Shown piece by piece: positions 27,001 through 33,000 of a stretch of DNA of 48,167 nucleotides. Numbering within the stretch: position 1 is the stretch's first letter; each line of letters begins with the position of its first letter. Made by a program: the position numbers. Location: the IMG/VR virus record IMGVR_UViG_2861053794_000003, positions 1 to 48,167 of that record; one strand, given 5' to 3'. Source of the stretch: a virus. Taxonomy: Duplodnaviria; Heunggongvirae; Uroviricota; Caudoviricetes.

Positions 27001-30000
27001 CAGCGCAGACTTCACTGCATCAGCAGTGACCAGTTTTTTCATTTCTGTCATGGTTTTCTCGCTGTGAGATGTGATTACGGGAGGGGCGTGGACTTTGGCT
27101 CTGCTGACTGACCGGCACTGATTTTTTCAGCCGCCATGGCATCAATCTTTTTACGGATGTAGTTGCGGATGATTTTATAACCACCACTCACCAGATACAG
27201 TGCACACACAGCCGTACAGAAATACAGCTGTATTTGCTGAATAAATGACATATACCCTTACCTTTAATATTGACTACAGAAACAGTTACCGGTTAAAAAG
27301 TAACTGCGTAAACAATGGCCTTCTTTAATTGAGTTGTTGTATTCCTTAATGGGTTTGGAATATCACCCGCCAGTCAACAAATTGCTCTTTGACTGGCGGT
27401 TTTTTTACCCTGATTACGCGTTATTCACTTCCACCACAATGCTGTCAATCAGCACCGGGTATGTCGCACCATTAGTGATATCAGTCACGCGTAACTTGTC
27501 TGCCCTAAACGTGCCAACCGGAGACTGCGACAGCATGAACGGTGTCCCGTCCTGACCATCAATGACCGGCGTCACCTCAATACTGTTGTGACCGGCAAAA
27601 CGGAAACCCAGCGTATGCCACTCATTATTAAATGCGCCGAATGACCCCAGCTTCGTGTTCTGCGCCGTGTTTCCTTTGTGATACATCACGTTAAGGTCTG
27701 TGGCATCGCTCTGTACGTAGAACGATGCCAGCAGGTTATGACCGGCATTACCTTCCAGAGTAACCCCTTGTGGCAGACCAGAAACCGGCCAGTACAGCGC
27801 CAGTGCGTACTGATTAGCCGTAAGCGCACCATCAACCTTAAACCGGCAGCTGACAAGCCCCCCTTTACCCAGCAGGTCCGCACCATTACCGGCATCATGC
27901 TCAAGGTACCAGGAGGATTTGCCTGTTTCCTTGGTCAGTTTCATGGCCTTACCCCCGCTGGCTCCGGCATCATCCACGGTCTGAGCCTTACCGCCTCCGG
28001 CAGTCCAGCCCTGCGGTGCCAGCTGCCCTTCAGACTCAGATGCCCGGTAAGCAAACAGCGTACTCATCGTCGTGGTGTCAGCCGGTGGCGTGGACGGTTT
28101 TGATGGTGCATCAGGTGATGGCTTCTCATCCGGTGATGTTACGGTCTGTCCGCCCATCAGTTCAGCCGTGCGTCCTGCATGGAGCAGAATAGCTGAGGCC
28201 AGACGGTCAGAAATGATGCCCCTGCGTGCCCATGAACTGAAATGGCTGTCACGCTGTGTCGAGACAAAACTGCCCTGGGTACGGGATGCCGCACCGTAAT
28301 ACCCGATAGCCACAATATCCGGGTCTTCCGTCGGAGCATTCGTTGGCGTGTTAGTGCCGTTTTCATCCGTCAGGAACGCCACAAAGAAAATATTCTGTGC
28401 TTCCTTGCCTTTGTAGCCACCGTATACCGCCTCATATTTATCGGTGCCAGCGTTTTTCCAGTAATATGTCGTATCACCACAAATCCACGGCACCGTGGCA
28501 GCATTTCCACTCACACACTGCGCAGCAAGCGGAGACAGGTCAGTTCTGAACTGCTGAACCATGGTCGTGAATAAACCATTATGCTGCTGACTTCCCGATG
28601 CAAGGTCTGCTTCTCCCTGCATCCAGACCACTGCCAGAAGTTTGTTTTTCGGGTTCTTCGCCAGCGCCGCTCTGGTACGGCTTACCAGGTCCTGATACAG
28701 AGGTTTACCGACTCCCCAGCGTGAAGAATCAGCGGAAGCACCGCTGGCCTCACTGAATGAACCGTCCGGCCCGCTGGTGAATGCTGACCCGCCACGGCAA
28801 CAGGGCACCAGAAGTATCCCGGCATTCTGCGGGATATAAGGCAGCAGTTTTTTGGCAATATGCAGCCCCTGACTCACACAACCATACTGCCCCTTGTTCA
28901 GGTCAGCTTTCGGGTGGTTTATCCCGCTCATGTCCTGCACATCATGCAGGCAGTGGTCTGCCGGAATGATGTCATTGTATTTACACGGCGTACCGCCTGG
29001 CGTGACCGTGCTGCGGCGTGCCAGTTGCTTAATCCGTGGGTCCGGGCGGTCAAATGAATCCGGTAACGGAAGCCCTTCACCATAGGACATGCCATTTGAC
29101 TGCCCCGCCAGAACAACAACAAAGTAATATTCCGGCTCACTGACTGTGCTCATTACCGTACCGCTGTCACCCGACGGCTTCACCACAACAGGCGTGGTGA
29201 CATCACCCTCCGCAGCAATCGCCTGCATCAGGGTATAAGGCGTAATAGCAACCGGACTGCCAAACGGCTGCCAGCCTTCCTTCAGTTTTTGTGACAGTCG
29301 CTCCGCAAGCTCTGACGGTGAAGCCGCCCTGACCACATCATAATGCTTAAATGTCATTGCTCCTCCCGGACGGGATAATGTGTTAACTAAGATGAGAGAG
29401 CAGATGACAGCCCCGGCCACATGAAAGTTCTGAGAGGGAAGTGCTGCCTGCTGCTCCATTACACAGATTAATTATCTGTCTGGTAGTATTCAGCGGCTGA
29501 TTAGAATACTTCACATTTTGTTATTTTGTGCAGCCCGTTACCATTCGTAGCGGGCTTTTTTAGTCCATAAAAAAGCCCCTCCGGAGAGGGGCATACTAGC
29601 TATATATCCATTTATCATTGGCTGCGTGGTGCCGGGTGCCTCCCGGTGAGCTCAGCCCGGTGTCACTGAGCCCGCACATTCTCGATCCAAGTTATCGTCG
29701 GAGATAATACCTGATACACCAGACGCCCCTCCGCACAGGGGGATTCACCACGCGCAGAGAAGAATACTGAACACTATTTTCTCCAGGCAATATGCAATAA
29801 CATGAAGTGTGAGATGACTTACAATTATAAAAAACAGCCTACAGAAGACTCCTAAATAAAGCCATATCAAAATGAGTAACAGGAAAAGAATCCAGGGAAA
29901 AATTTACGAGCAGGTATTATCCAGCAACAGTTCAGACACCATAACTTATTGCCGATAGCTACCATCAATAATTTCTTTCATAAAAAAGCCCCTCCGAAGA

Positions 30001-33000
30001 GGGGCTGACATACGCATTTGCTTTCATCATTAATATGGCGCCGGGTGCCTCCCAGTGCTCCATAACTGATTAATATGGAACGCGGTTTCATTCAGTTGCA
30101 TTCATGAATAACACTCTAATCAGTCCGCCCCGCCGCTTAGGGGGATTCGCCATATAAATTGAAAGTACTGAACACATCTGTCACAAACAATATGCAATTG
30201 TATGAATTGTGAGATTATTATCAATAACACAAAATTATAGCTCTAGTACATAAACAGCAGATTAAACAAGAACAACAAAAGTTTTGAATTGCACGGTGCC
30301 GGGTGCCTCCCGGTGAATTCTGCAATGACCAGACAGAATCCGCAACTTGCTACTAACGCTAATGCGACTAAGCCTAACAGTCATTATGCCCCTCCGCACA
30401 GGGGGATTCACCATGCGCTAAAAAAATACAAAACATCACGTCCCTCTGACAATACGAAGCACCATAAAATGTGAGTTATTTATCAATTCTTAATTCTGGT
30501 TACAGGAATATTCCGAATCAAATCTTTAAAAAAAGAAATTCAAATGCATGGTGCCGGGTGCCTCCCGGTGAACAGACCGTCCGTGATACCAGTCGGCAAC
30601 ACAGGAAATTAATGGTATCACCCCACCGCACAGGGGGATTCACCATGCAGGCGTTTTCTTAGCAAACTAACTGCGCGCCCGGCAACTCCCAACCATATAA
30701 AACGTGGAGTTTGTAGCATTTATGCACATAACTCACAGGAGTTATCTTAAAAAAAGCTGACAATGCTTCCCCGGCAACGCAATAACTTTATCCCCTGAAG
30801 TGGCATCCCCCGTATTATCGACAAGCTCAAAAAGGAGCCAGTCATCTGAGGATGACTGGAAAAAGGAAAGATAAAAAATTATTCATCATACAACCTTCGT
30901 TGCAGGGGAGAATCCTGCGGTGCAGCAACATACAAAAACATAAGCCAACTAACAATATGCAGGCATAGCATTTTCGGATTTTGTTATATGGCACGATAAC
31001 TGAATGCTTACCTGATATACAGTCCGGTATAAAGTTGCAAAAAACCGCCAGTTAAGGCGGCATTCAAACAGACAACAGGATTTTTTCGTAATTTTAACAA
31101 CGTCGGGGTGGCGCATCGTCAGTCCCTGTCAGGAAGTACCAGAACTCCCACCAACAATGCCCCACCCCATTCAGCGTTATAAAACACGGCACAGGAACTA
31201 TCAATGTTTTCTGTTACAGTTCGGGAAAAACGATAAACACGCCACGGGCTCTTTTTGCTGTGAATTAAAAACGGTCCTGAAAGCCAGCTCATCATTTTTT
31301 TACTGGACCGTCACCGGGGACTCGAACCCCGCACTCTCAACATAAAAGGTTGATGCTCTTTCCTGATGAGCTAGTGACGGCATGGTGGCCCTTGCTGGAT
31401 TTGAACCAGCGACCTGGCGGTTATGAGCCGCTCGCTCTCACCACTGAGCTAAAGGGCCGGAATGCAGAATAATAATCACGGGGATTTAATTCTGCAATAT
31501 CAGTAACCATTACTGATTAAATTCAGAACTTCCCTGGCCGTTTGCTCAAAACGTTCAGCTTCCAGTTCAACACCAATTGCATGACGCCCAAGCGCCATAG
31601 CGGCTTTTATGATTGAGCCCGACCCCATAAAGAAATCCGCCACCATGTCACCAGGACGGCTGCTCGCACAAATTATCTGCCGCAGCATCTCCGCCGGTTT
31701 TTCACAGGGGTGTTTACCCGGGTAAAACTGGACCGGCTTGTGCGTCCACACATCGGTATATGGCACCTGCGCCGTCACGCCAAAATACCGCCGCAGATGC
31801 TTATATTCACACTGCAGTTCCGCATACTGCCGGTTCAGTGAGGTATACGCGGCAACCAGCTGGTGGTGGGGTTTTTCCAGTTCACCGCGTTGATGCTTTT
31901 CTTCTGCCACCCGGGCAAACAACGCCTGTAATTTCAGATAATCGCGTTCATTCGGTAACTGCCACTGACTGGTACTGAACCAGTGCGACACCATGTTTTT
32001 CTTTCCTGTGGCATCAGCAATCTGTTTTGCCGTTATCCCCAGAGCGGCACGCGCATCACGAAAGTAAGATATCAGCGGGGCCATCACATGCTGTTTCAGT
32101 GCCCTGCCCTTCGCCTCATAGCCATCATCTTTTGGGCGATACGGTCCCTGATAATGTTCCGCAAACAGAATGCGCTCTGTGGCCGGGAAATACGCACGCA
32201 GGCTTTCCTTGTTGCACCCGTTCCAGCGTCCGGATGGCTTCGCCCAGATGATATGGTTCAGCACATTAAAGCGTTCACGCATCATGATTTCGATGTCAGA
32301 CGCCAGGCGATGGCCACAGAACAGGTAAAGACTTCCGGTAGGTTTCAGCACCCGCCAGAACTGCGCCAGACACTGGTCCAGCCACTTCAGGTAATCTTCA
32401 TCACCCGCCCACTGGTTATCCCAGCTCTCAGGTTTCACTTTAAAGTACGGCGGGTCCGTGACTATCAGATCAACAGAATTTTCGGGTAACGACCGGATAA
32501 ATTCCAGGCAGTCGGCGTTGATTAACTCACAACTGGATATTTTTACAGTATTAAACATGGATCATTAAGCCTGTCTCTGATAGGCTCATTCTGCTTTTGC
32601 GCAAAGCAGTGGGCCTGAGGTTTGCTTGTGATCCCAATGCATGAGCAGATGGCTGGTGAGCGCCCCTAACACCCACCAGCCGCCCATTTACCACAAATAA
32701 AAAAGCCTTCACTGTGGAAGGTGTCTGTAACAACCAAACTGATAGTCTGCCAGACCCGCCATAACAAGCTGGGTCAGTATTAACTGGCAGCGTTCGCGTG
32801 AAAGGTATGTGTTCTGCGCAATCTCCCCGACTGTCGCCGGTTCGGTGACGCTCAATTCATTAAACACCACTCTGGCGGTTTCTGTCATATCCTGCTGTTT
32901 CTGCATGTCTTTTTCCCTTTTCCGGTTAACGTGACACACCAATAGCTCTTGTCGAAAAAGCCAGCAAGCTGAAAGACCGGTATTAATAACCACCTGCACA

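Follow-up and report, generated by a model that had tools for sequence, protein, structure and literature searches.

An array of four STnc100 small RNA family members between the late-region tRNAs and nanS-p of an stx-negative lambdoid Escherichia coli prophage

Small RNAs at the moron site of known phages

In Stx2 phages (Sakai Sp5/933W; Stx2_112808, LC567830.1), the late region runs in the order Q, (methylase), tRNAs, moron slot, STnc100, convergent sRNA, and nanS-p to Rz. In Sakai Sp5, 75 nt separate stx2B from a downstream STnc100 family member, which AsxR faces in convergent orientation, and STnc100 is also present in the Stx2d phage. To our knowledge, STnc100 itself still lacks a firmly established target or phenotype. 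Hfq-bound convergent sRNA pairs were found at the pR' moron site of Sakai Sp3, Sp4, Sp9, Sp10, Sp11, Sp15, and Sp17 (Tree et al. 2014, PMC4104026). STnc100 overlaps EcOnc27 of Sakai, the same as sRNA103 of EDL933, overexpression of which raises fimZ and espA transcripts (PMC12711010), and these homologues are expressed and Hfq-associated (PMC4104026, PMC12711010). PasD, a structural relative of STnc100, is located upstream of the esterase (bioRxiv 10.64898/2026.05.13.724894) and is Hfq-dependent (PMC8550237), and PasD2 ranks first in abundance among the RNAs of CsrA ternary complexes (bioRxiv 10.64898/2026.08.12.744399).

The window analyzed here, the whole stretch of 48,167 nucleotides in IMG/VR record IMGVR_UViG_2861053794_000003, is a lambdoid E. 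coli prophage with 99.9% identity to an annotated prophage of strain 95-3322 from integrase to tail genes. Synteny, absence of stx, STnc100 membership of four units, compensatory upkeep of their structure, and an intact esterase active-site motif were directly shown, and the region is likely the Q-dependent late region of a toxin-free prophage, with the chassis of a Stx2 phage and an sRNA island in the stx slot. The four units with an extra upstream module are the special feature of this locus.

Gene order of the late region and the stx slot

As shown in Table 1, Q on the minus strand is followed by two small ORFs, a 352-aa DNA methylase, tRNA-Ile(CAU), tRNA-Lys(UUU), and a gene-free stretch, and beyond it by the NanS-p esterase, DUF1378, DUF826, holin, lysozyme, and Rz, an order based on ORF listing, Pfam, and the RefSeq annotation of the 99.9%-identical genome. 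The first-pass annotation had recognized a Stx2-phage-like layout (Q, methylase, tRNAs, NanS-p-like esterase, holin), a view to be given up if the region was not syntenic with Stx phage late regions; alignment to these regions showed synteny, and both gene order and sequence homology were collinear with Stx2 phages.

Table 1 Features of the late region, with positions in the window.
Feature	Position	Strand	Evidence
Late-gene antiterminator Q, 221 aa	34048..34713	-	PF06323 E 6.7e-89; RefSeq 'bacteriophage antitermination protein Q'
Presumed pR'-tR' region 3' of Q	33937..34047	-	GC hairpin ~33957-33942 then T run, read from the sequence
237-aa predicted membrane protein	33081..33794	-	ORF listing; RefSeq hypothetical protein
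65-aa conserved hypothetical ORF	32709..32906	-	RefSeq CDS
N6/N4 DNA methyltransferase, 352 aa	31500..32558	-	PF01555 E 1.3e-43
tRNA, CAU anticodon, ileZ homologue	31383..31458	-	ARAGORN: Met; RefSeq: Ile
tRNA-Lys(UUU)	31304..31380	-	Aligns with Stx-phage argN tRNA; anticodon stem-loop replaced
Structured non-coding segment X1	31036..31170	-	Terminator-like hairpin 31061-31044 and T run (terminator scan)
Candidate sRNA X2	30826..30925	-	5' hairpin, U-rich linker, terminator 30859-30838 and T run
STnc100 unit 1, short variant	30500..30678	-	RF02076 76.6 bits, E 1e-14
STnc100 unit 2	30246..30441	-	RF02076 103.6 bits
STnc100 unit 3	29976..30181	-	RF02076 96.6 bits
STnc100 unit 4	29563..29783	-	RF02076 131.9 bits
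Convergent small-RNA candidate abutting unit 4	29505..29562	+	Terminator 29532-29556 and T run (terminator scan)
NanS-p-type sialate O-acetylesterase, 647 aa	27414..29357	-	DUF1737, SASA, DUF6645
DUF1378	27251-27075	-	Pfam and RefSeq; 60% identity to Sp5
DUF826	27051-26746	-	Pfam and RefSeq; 50% identity to Sp5
Class II holin	26668-26453	-	Pfam and RefSeq; 97% identity to Sp5
Lysozyme (endolysin)	26448-25915	-	Pfam and RefSeq; 92% identity to Sp5
Rz	25616-25149	-	Pfam and RefSeq

Q had no tblastn match to the 144-aa Q of Sp5, the two Q families being different, and a weak, sub-threshold isrJ-like match was found at 34008-33937. The 237-aa predicted membrane protein, which had no Pfam match and lies in a stretch of low GC (~38-40% in the composition profile), is probably a moron between Q and the methylase. 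At the place equivalent to the 65-aa ORF, 5' of the methylase, Stx2d phage LC567830.1 has a 198-nt ORF. The segment of methylase and tRNA-Ile showed 88-89% DNA identity to Stx2a/Stx2d phages, and the 352-aa methylase class is carried by some Stx2a phages (PMC10462455). The CAU tRNA aligned to Sp5 ileZ with one compensatory change in the anticodon stem, and the ileZ-argN-argO triplet is incomplete: the ileZ homologue is kept, the argN position holds a UUU (Lys) tRNA, and argO is missing.

The three-domain NanS-p architecture of the esterase was complete, with PF08410 at residues 3-50, PF03629 at 80-275, and PF20350 at 496-613. It matched NanS (3PT5) at E 8e-118 and the NanS-p C-terminal domain (6YP6) at E 1e-99, and had 64% protein identity to Sp5 ECs1207. 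Absence of a catalytic Ser/His/Asp arrangement had been raised earlier as a point that would speak against the proposed layout. This objection was not borne out: alignment to 3PT5 showed that catalytic Ser87 (GQSN) and His372 (SH) are kept, the catalytic residues of 3PT5 being those assigned in the NanS structure paper. The His block reads RDSH here, in contrast to RSSH/RASH in published NanS-p proteins. The esterase start first placed at 29459 was corrected to 29357 (MTFKHY), which has GGAGG ~5 nt upstream, is the RefSeq start, and is where the Sp5 tblastn alignment starts, at residue 1. Because of this start, the gene-free interval from tRNA to esterase (31303-29358) is 1946 bp and not 1.8 kb. 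The repeat array said to fill it is there, but it covers only ~1.1 kb (30678-29563), and the upstream 625 bp (31303-30679) form a separate non-coding module.

No stxA-stxB operon was present between the late-region tRNAs and nanS-p, in agreement with the earlier reading of the ORFs. Searching the whole window by tblastn with Sakai Stx2A and Stx2B, a check proposed earlier, revealed no stx remnant (best E = 0.59), and Pfam found no family and no toxin in the six frames of 31303-29358. When the interval was compared with 50,697 phage records by sensitive blastn, Stx phages were matched only at the STnc100 locus 3' of stx2B, never under stx. A collinear region with no trace of stx bears out the earlier view of a toxin-free relative of Stx phages. 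The suggestion that a different cargo occupies the toxin site held in that the content is not stx, but this cargo is not foreign, as Stx2 phages carry one STnc100 beside stx2B.

The interval might also be what is left of an stx locus after decay or rearrangement, the toxin genes having been lost by deletion and the repeats being non-functional remains of recombination between prophages. Such an origin would suit the highly mosaic late regions of prophages, the repeated loss of stx after integration proposed by Zhu et al. (preprint), and the behavior of stx2AB in related prophages as a clean presence/absence cassette, running from the hairpin after argO to the STnc100 promoter box. We regard it as highly improbable, since stx remnants were absent at the DNA, protein, and profile levels, the sequence past the second tRNA had no homology to either stx junction, the units lie far over the family threshold with helices kept by compensatory change, and the array is 98% conserved in 15-16 genomes.

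The STnc100 array and its core structure

The repeat array consists of four co-oriented members of the Rfam family STnc100 (RF02076), with 76.6-131.9 bits against a gathering threshold of 47; all four matches cover model positions 1-206, at E values from 1e-14 to 7e-29, well beyond chance. Unit 4 corresponds to the copy located 3' of stx2B in Stx2 phages, with 70% identity to the Stx2d-phage copy versus 48-59% to the other units, the same range as found among the four units overall. Judged from sequence, the units are old paralogues rather than recent duplicates. The unit 1 variant also occurs singly elsewhere, beside lpxR/iraM cargo and in Rac-like prophages. The array was 98.1-98.4% identical among 15-16 genomes, compared with 93.6-95.3% for the whole 5.6 kb; this difference could come from mosaic recombination in the esterase instead of selection.

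Promoter-like sites were seen for unit 2 (TTGTCA-18-TATTTT, 30452-30423) and unit 3 (TTGATA-16-TACAAT, 30224-30197, 10/12 matches), in a consensus scan that found 4 sites against 4.3 expected in shuffled sequence and thus no excess. A promoter-like box is kept 5' of units 2-4 and 5' of the Stx-phage copy. Intrinsic terminators were detected for unit 3 (30006-29987) and unit 4 (29592-29575), and the terminator scan found no canonical terminator for units 1 and 2. The number of GGA motifs per unit is 3-6.

The core structure was examined in 18 units from 10 loci, with slid partners and 500 shuffles as controls. The results showed that 99.3% of cells were paired, compared with 44-50% with slid partners, and that both sides had changed in 9 of the 23 pairs (0-3 when slid); none of the 500 shuffles equalled the observed values. 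Compensatory changes were also found among the window's own units, including the closing helix of unit 3. All four units have this closing helix and two near-invariant hairpins, CCCCCUGUGCGGAGGGG and CCGGGAGGCACCCGG, which are conserved including their loops, while the arms between them vary freely. Such invariant core hairpin loops are unusual for a seed-pairing sRNA.

In a comparison with PasD2 of EPEC, alignment was limited to the 5' core and unit 2's middle arm, the latter being similar in the two. PasD2 scores below the STnc100 threshold, and the 3' linker, which carries the PasD seed UGUGAG, differs from those of the units. The idea that the units are PasD alleles was rejected; a PasD probe had no match at <=3 mismatches.

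Neighboring RNA candidates, slot variants, and comparison with known systems

Within the upstream module, X1 folds at -53.3 kcal/mol (z = -4.1), had no match among phage records, and is confined to this prophage type (19 genomes). X2 (fold z = -4.5) had no Rfam family match. The part at 30987-30679 matched other lambdoid prophages at ~66-80% identity in roughly 475 genomes and lies directly 5' of a unit-1-type STnc100 in all three prophages examined (A8, c1-17, M8); none of the 50,697 phage records contained the 625-bp module. On the opposite strand, the terminator of the convergent candidate (fold z = -4.7) ends 1 nt from unit 4. Its 5' part, TTACTTCAC[A/G]TTTTGTTATTT, and the upstream TAGTAT/TATTAT box are common to the Stx2d phage and FORC_041, and it is similar to the Hfq RIL-seq sRNA E2348C_1409-1408.IGR, the sequence of which is printed in PMC8550237. 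The AsxR and AgvB models (RF02703, RF02702; conserved ~42-nt 3' region) had no match at E <= 10 in 29300-31320, whereas Sp5 scores AsxR at 88.1 bits.

In a survey of slots with the same flanks, 1, 3, 4, or 5 STnc100 units, stx2AB, or lpxR-iraM were found, and both stx2AB and lpxR-iraM occur together with STnc100 at the slot of related prophages. A single STnc100 is the sole occupant in JNEC-KY171, MLI104K2, and NMBU-W12E19 (flanked by methylase, tRNAs, and esterase). Between identical flanks, A39 has three units, and ECOR29 and A8 have STnc100, a hypothetical gene, lpxR, and iraM. Compared with these E. coli variants, the prophage studied here has the largest all-RNA version, and this version comes mostly from rodent isolates, such as 8178 and M1 from mice. 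Four tandem units, unrelated to those here, also lie 5' of the esterase in FORC_041, and the same BLAST match pattern was obtained for ~18 more genomes, many of them STEC. Prophage-like regions with arrays of 3-5 units were found repeatedly, in E. coli, Leclercia, Superficieibacter, and Pantoea.

Taken together, the island on the late strand comprises two terminator-ended structured segments followed by four STnc100 genes, with the convergent candidate on the opposite strand. By analogy with the homologues, sigma-70-type promoters belonging to the units would drive their transcription in the lysogen; units 3 and 4 would end at their own terminators, and units 1 and 2 would probably read into the next unit or be processed. 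The RNAs may act in trans on host and prophage mRNAs, Hfq-associated and possibly CsrA-associated, and the variable arms and the 3' linkers that differ between units may provide different target sets. Upon induction, Q-modified RNA polymerase from pR' would pass all terminators to reach nanS-p and the lysis genes, and the esterase would be expected to strip O-acetyl groups off mucin-derived sialic acids.

It is quite unlikely that the units instead serve the late transcript mainly as elements that act in cis or bind protein, be it as a scaffold for a phage or host protein, as an element that helps to process or stabilize the pR' mRNA, or as a CsrA/Hfq sponge. The co-orientation of the units with the late operon in all 20 loci seen is consistent with such a role, as are the missing terminators of units 1 and 2, the GGA motifs together with the place of PasD2 at the top of CsrA ternary complexes, and the recurrence of arrays in three other genera, and invariant hairpins with free arms suggest a recognized shape over a seed. 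However, no partner protein is known, homologues were detected as separate sRNAs that bind Hfq and have partners in trans (PMC4104026, PMC8550237), and promoter-like boxes and own terminators indicate independent genes. Somewhat less doubtful, though still unlikely, is that STnc100 genes are arrayed as multi-copy cassettes that recombine, making up an 'sRNA island' in the stx/lpxR-iraM moron slot, the core perhaps being a protein-recognized scaffold dosed by copy number. If true, the scaffold could be, for example, a CsrA/Hfq titrator or guide rather than an ordinary set of seed-pairing sRNAs, and the array studied here would be a high-dose or multi-specificity variant.

The locus was compared with the described systems. 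Stx2 phages share the late-region order and differ in having stx2AB, another Q family, ileZ-argN-argO, one STnc100, no 625-bp module, and an esterase of 64% identity. The position of AsxR in Sp5 is the same as that of the convergent candidate, and a short terminator-ended convergent gene abutting STnc100, upstream of nanS-p, is found here too. PasD1 and PasD2 of EPEC E2348/69 are structurally related, and the units likewise lie just 5' of a sialate esterase, as PasD2 does. The stx-negative prophages of Tree et al. (2014) have the same geometry, with sRNA genes between the moron position and nanS-p, and unit 4 abuts a plus-strand terminator; in contrast to them, the convergent RNA here has no AsxR/AgvB match, and on the sense strand there are four sRNA copies. 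Toxin-free prophages of this kind have already been published, as have pairs of sRNAs at the "moron" site, and four diverged copies of STnc100, a known phage small RNA, in the stx slot therefore fit what is known of such phages.

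Gene order of the late region

Over 5.6 kb around the locus, the E. coli 95-3322 chromosome and about nine other complete genomes matched the window at 99.9% identity. RefSeq annotation at the corresponding coordinates showed that the whole window is a lambdoid prophage, nearly complete and lying on the minus strand. Integrase, excisionase and exonuclease come first, then a RacR-type repressor, genes for replication, RusA and Q; the lysis genes, terminase and lambda-like genes for head and tail follow, with IS100 at the opposite end. The IS100 adjoins a tail-fibre gene, and an ompC-like porin gene, a tail-region moron, is flanked by the genes for minor tail protein L and for a phage tail protein. 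A Hok/Gef toxin gene, a ParD/ParE toxin-antitoxin pair and dicB were also found.

ORFs, Pfam and RefSeq annotation all showed the order of Q, methylase, tRNAs, esterase and holin that had been given for Stx2 phages in the first-pass annotation. The esterase start was placed at 29357, supported by a GGAGG about 5 nt upstream, the RefSeq start and the alignment from residue 1 with the protein of Sp5, the Stx2 prophage of E. coli Sakai; an in-frame ATG at 29459 was rejected in its favour. The gene-free interval between tRNA-Lys and the esterase gene is therefore 1946 bp. A 58-aa ORF (31295-31119) and other short ORFs in it had no Pfam match, were absent from RefSeq and were not taken as genes. 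The 237-aa membrane ORF between Q/pR' and the methylase gene is directly followed by a terminator-like hairpin (33052-33035) and is probably a separate moron. Just downstream of Q, the window has a hairpin and a T run. Immediately after Q in the ECOR29 prophage (locus L005, 131-332), isrK and C4 antisense RNA/c4-a1b1 scored above the Rfam threshold; the counterpart site in the window (34008-33937) gave a sub-threshold isrJ-like match only.

Features of the prophage, with positions in the window
Feature	Position	Strand	Remarks
dicB	43809-43997	plus	
ParD/ParE pair	36547-37109	plus	toxin-antitoxin
Q	34713-34048	minus	PF06323
237-aa multi-pass membrane ORF	33081-33794	minus	no Pfam family; low GC (~38-40%)
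65-aa ORF	between 237-aa ORF and methylase	minus	part of the confirmed gene order
N6/N4 methylase, 352 aa	32558-31500	minus	
tRNA(CAU)	31458-31383	minus	ileZ homologue
tRNA-Lys(UUU)	31380-31304	minus	
Gene-free interval	31303-29358		1946 bp
X2, terminator-ended candidate sRNA	30826-30925	minus	within module 30987-30679
STnc100 unit 1	30678-30500	minus (late-gene strand)	76.6 bits
STnc100 unit 2	30441-30246	minus (late-gene strand)	103.6 bits
STnc100 unit 3	30181-29976	minus (late-gene strand)	96.6 bits
STnc100 unit 4	29783-29563	minus (late-gene strand)	131.9 bits
Convergent short RNA candidate	29505-29562	plus	terminator 29532-29556
nanS-p esterase, 647 aa	29357-27414	minus	
Class II holin	26668-26453	minus	order after esterase: DUF1378, DUF826, holin, lysozyme, Rz
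ompC-like porin gene	8747-9910	minus	among tail genes (RefSeq annotation of identical genome)
Hok/Gef toxin	2508-2648	minus	
IS100	1-1031		left end of window

Synteny with Stx phages and absence of stx

The region was compared by blastn and tblastn with Sp5 as the reference. The Stx2d phage LC567830.1 carries Q, a 198-nt ORF, a 352-aa methylase gene, three tRNAs, stx2A, stx2B, yjhS/nanS-p, two small ORFs, holin and endolysin, and Sp5 has the same order but without the methylase. Stx2a and Stx2d phages showed 88-89% DNA identity to the methylase gene and first tRNA of the window. Compared with Sp5, the holin was 97% and the endolysin 92% identical, while the esterase was 64% identical over 553 residues, DUF1378 60% and DUF826 50%; the Q proteins were unrelated. 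Because the late region is collinear with those of Stx phages, a lack of synteny, the first objection that could be raised to an Stx-phage-like reading, does not apply. The acceptor, D and T arms of tRNA-Lys can be aligned with those of the Stx-phage argN tRNA, and the anticodon stem-loop of tRNA-Lys is replaced (UUU, Lys, versus UCG/UCU, Arg), which may be a case of anticodon switching in a phage-borne tRNA. In the anticodon stem of the ileZ homologue, one A-U pair has become G-C by compensatory change.

Three NanS-p domains (DUF1737, SASA and DUF6645) were found in the esterase. Alignment gave E = 8e-118 with the solved NanS 3PT5 and E = 1e-99 with the solved NanS-p C-terminal domain 6YP6. 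To our knowledge, there is no canonical DxxH aspartate in NanS-type enzymes, and retention of Ser and His is therefore the appropriate test for this esterase. In the alignment to 3PT5, Ser87 (GQSN block) and His372 (SH of the last block) were kept; the last block reads RDSH in place of the RSSH, RASH or RPTH of published NanS-p proteins. As judged by alignment, the catalytic motifs are thus intact, as the earlier reading needed.

The same reading had placed no stxA or stxB here, and three tests agreed with it. With tblastn, Stx2A and Stx2B of Sakai had no match better than E = 0.59 in the entire window. Pfam searches found no toxin family in the six frames of the interval, the sole hit (E = 0.057) being meaningless. 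When the interval was searched by sensitive blastn, 269 of 50,697 phage records matched, many of them Stx phages; in the listed records no match lay under stx, and all fell in unannotated DNA downstream of stx2B. The prophage is a toxin-free relative of Stx phages, as had been proposed. That its slot, the interval between phage tRNAs and nanS-p where Stx phages carry stx2AB, is a decayed stx locus appears very improbable: beyond the missing matches, the junction after tRNA-Lys has nothing in common with either stx junction.

Four STnc100 genes and other elements in the slot

A structured repeat array had been described as filling a 1.8-kb interval. The array is real and consists of four STnc100 (RF02076) matches, with E-values of 1e-14 to 7e-29 and scores above the Rfam curated threshold of 47 bits; the interval is longer than described and includes a separate 625-bp module. 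Among the direct-repeat families of the array, D1 and D2 correspond to the two near-invariant hairpins in the core of the STnc100 RNA. A box that precedes each of units 2-4 accounts for D3, and the terminators of units 3 and 4 for D4. Pairwise identity among the units, flanks included, was 48-59%, and unit 4 was 70% identical to the Stx2d phage copy; the units are not recent duplicates. When the interval was scanned with Rfam at low threshold for AsxR, AgvB, Esr41 and other families, the only scores were those of RsmY (21.9 bits), RybB (19.7) and FnrS (17), each below threshold and at chance level, and these assignments were rejected.

Alignment of 18 unit cores from 10 loci predicted a closing helix, a 5' hairpin, a variable-arm helix and a 3' hairpin. 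Paired cells reached 99.3%, compared with 44-50% for slid partners, and changes on both sides occurred at 9 of 23 pairs, compared with 0-3; none of 500 shuffles equalled the observed values. Several compensatory changes tell the window's own units apart, such as AUAUGGCG/CGCCAUAU in unit 3 and GCGUGGUG/CACCACGC in unit 4, where the usual pair is GCAUGGUG/CACCAUGC. The structure has been maintained in all four genes. The main alternative to separate sRNA genes, that the near-invariant core acts in cis within the late mRNA or serves as a protein-recognised scaffold, accords with the strict co-orientation of units with late genes, the invariant loops of the core, the GGA motifs and the multi-copy arrays, and we consider it rather unlikely.

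For the units as sRNA genes, a sigma-70-like site was found at unit 3 (TTGATA-16-TACAAT, 10/12) and at unit 2 (9/12). A sigma-70 consensus scan showed no enrichment over shuffled sequence, and the promoters are predictions, assigned from a conserved box that precedes the units (near 30224-30197 and 29830-29800). Canonical terminators end units 3 and 4 (at 29987 and 29575); the terminator scan found none for units 1 and 2.

Two late-strand terminator-like hairpins (31061-31044 and 30859-30838) lie in the 625-bp module that separates tRNA-Lys from unit 1, and the segments ending there, X1 and X2, fold much better than shuffles (z = -4.1 and -4.5). No match to the module was found in the phage collection. 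X2, which likewise matched no phage record and no Rfam family, lies in a module that recurs in about 475 E. coli genomes, Rac-like prophages included, with about 66-80% conservation. In three aligned prophages (A8, c1-17 and M8) this module is directly 5' of a short STnc100 of the unit-1 type. The loop of the X2 terminator is inverted between loci (CUCA versus UGAG), with the stem kept. On the plus strand, the terminator of the convergent candidate reaches to within 1 nt of unit 4, where Sp5 has AsxR, and the candidate had no match to the AsxR or AgvB models. Its 5' part and -10-like box are common to the Stx2d phage and FORC_041, but the terminator stems differ; it also resembles the EPEC Hfq RIL-seq sRNA E2348C_1409-1408.IGR (supplement of PMC8550237).

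Slot cargo in relatives and known systems

Slot variants were compared between the same methylase/tRNA and esterase flanks. JNEC-KY171, MLI104K2 and NMBU-W12E19 have ileZ-argN-argO and one STnc100, nothing else; PG20180057 and M1 have the four-unit arrangement of the window, and A39 three units. In ECOR29 and A8, tRNA-Ile, tRNA-Lys, the 625-bp module and one unit-1-type STnc100 are followed by a hypothetical gene, lpxR and iraM. In 'empty' slots about 10-40 nt lie between the hairpin after argO and the STnc100 promoter box, and in Sp5 stx2AB separates the two; stx therefore behaves as a clean cassette polymorphism. That a single slot can be empty or can hold stx2AB, lpxR-iraM or additional sRNA genes interchangeably is relevant to the movement of toxin cassettes among phage backbones.

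Part of this late region is matched in 3472 of 5426 complete E. coli genomes, at 9618 places in all, and the exact four-unit array in 15-16 of the 5426, mostly isolates from mouse or other rodents. The mouse isolates 8178, M1 and PG20180057 carry the prophage. Hosts of the array include Mus musculus and Zyzomys argurus, and the lpxR-iraM version came from kangaroo rat and mouse isolates. This skew may reflect a host-associated distribution or sampling bias. Tandem STnc100 arrays are in themselves not rare: in FORC_041, four unrelated tandem units precede the esterase gene, and about 18 further genomes, many STEC, gave the same BLAST match pattern. A tandem-core pattern scan of species-representative genomes led to enterobacterial loci, and the five that were rescanned all had STnc100; Superficieibacter, Leclercia and Pantoea (L018, L021-L023, L027) have 3-5 matches within a few kb. 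Some non-Escherichia clusters are interleaved with tRNA or isrI. GC-rich Actinoplanes, Streptomyces and alphaproteobacterial loci from that scan were taken as chance matches. Such arrays are unmarked in genome annotation, which is relevant to studies of STnc100 dosage and targets.

Stx phages themselves carry STnc100. In Sp5, an STnc100 of 207.7 bits starts 75 nt after stx2B and is directly followed by the convergent anti-sRNA AsxR, and the Stx2d phage has one between stx2B and nanS-p. EcOnc27 and EcOnc02/AsxR were reported as convergent Hfq-bound sRNAs 3' of stx2B, with equivalent pairs in the stx-negative Sp3, Sp4, Sp9, Sp10, Sp11, Sp15 and Sp17, located at the pR' 'moron' insertion site (Tree et al. 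2014, PMC4104026). EcOnc27 (sRNA103 in EDL933) overlaps STnc100, and its overexpression increased fimZ and espA transcripts; its variants are HUS-predictive features, and recent work associated STnc100 variants located downstream of stx2 with clinical outcome in O157 (PMC12711010). STnc100, 75 nt downstream of stx2, was also found in outer-membrane vesicles (PMC12370729). It is structurally related to PasD, which in EPEC is directly upstream of a sialate esterase gene (2026 preprint, bioRxiv 10.64898/2026.05.13.724894). PasD is Hfq-dependent (PMC8550237), and in CsrA ternary complexes no RNA is more abundant than PasD2 (bioRxiv 10.64898/2026.08.12.744399). The units of the window are not PasD alleles: a scan for the PasD probe at up to 3 mismatches gave no match, and PasD2 itself scores below the STnc100 threshold.

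By analogy with these homologues, the units would be transcribed in the lysogen from their own promoters, and their RNAs would be Hfq-associated, possibly CsrA-associated, regulators whose differing variable regions could give differing partners. Upon induction, Q-modified polymerase from pR' would pass the terminators, and nanS-p and the lysis cassette would be expressed.

The finding is mostly ordinary, as Stx-negative lambdoid prophages sharing the Stx-phage late region and nanS-p are common. Prophages of this kind are already established, as are nanS-p alleles and moron-site sRNA genes, and the prophage of the window is itself in RefSeq, with its RNAs unannotated. Compared with these known systems, only the expansion of STnc100 to a four-unit array, together with two unassigned terminator-ended segments, is mildly new.
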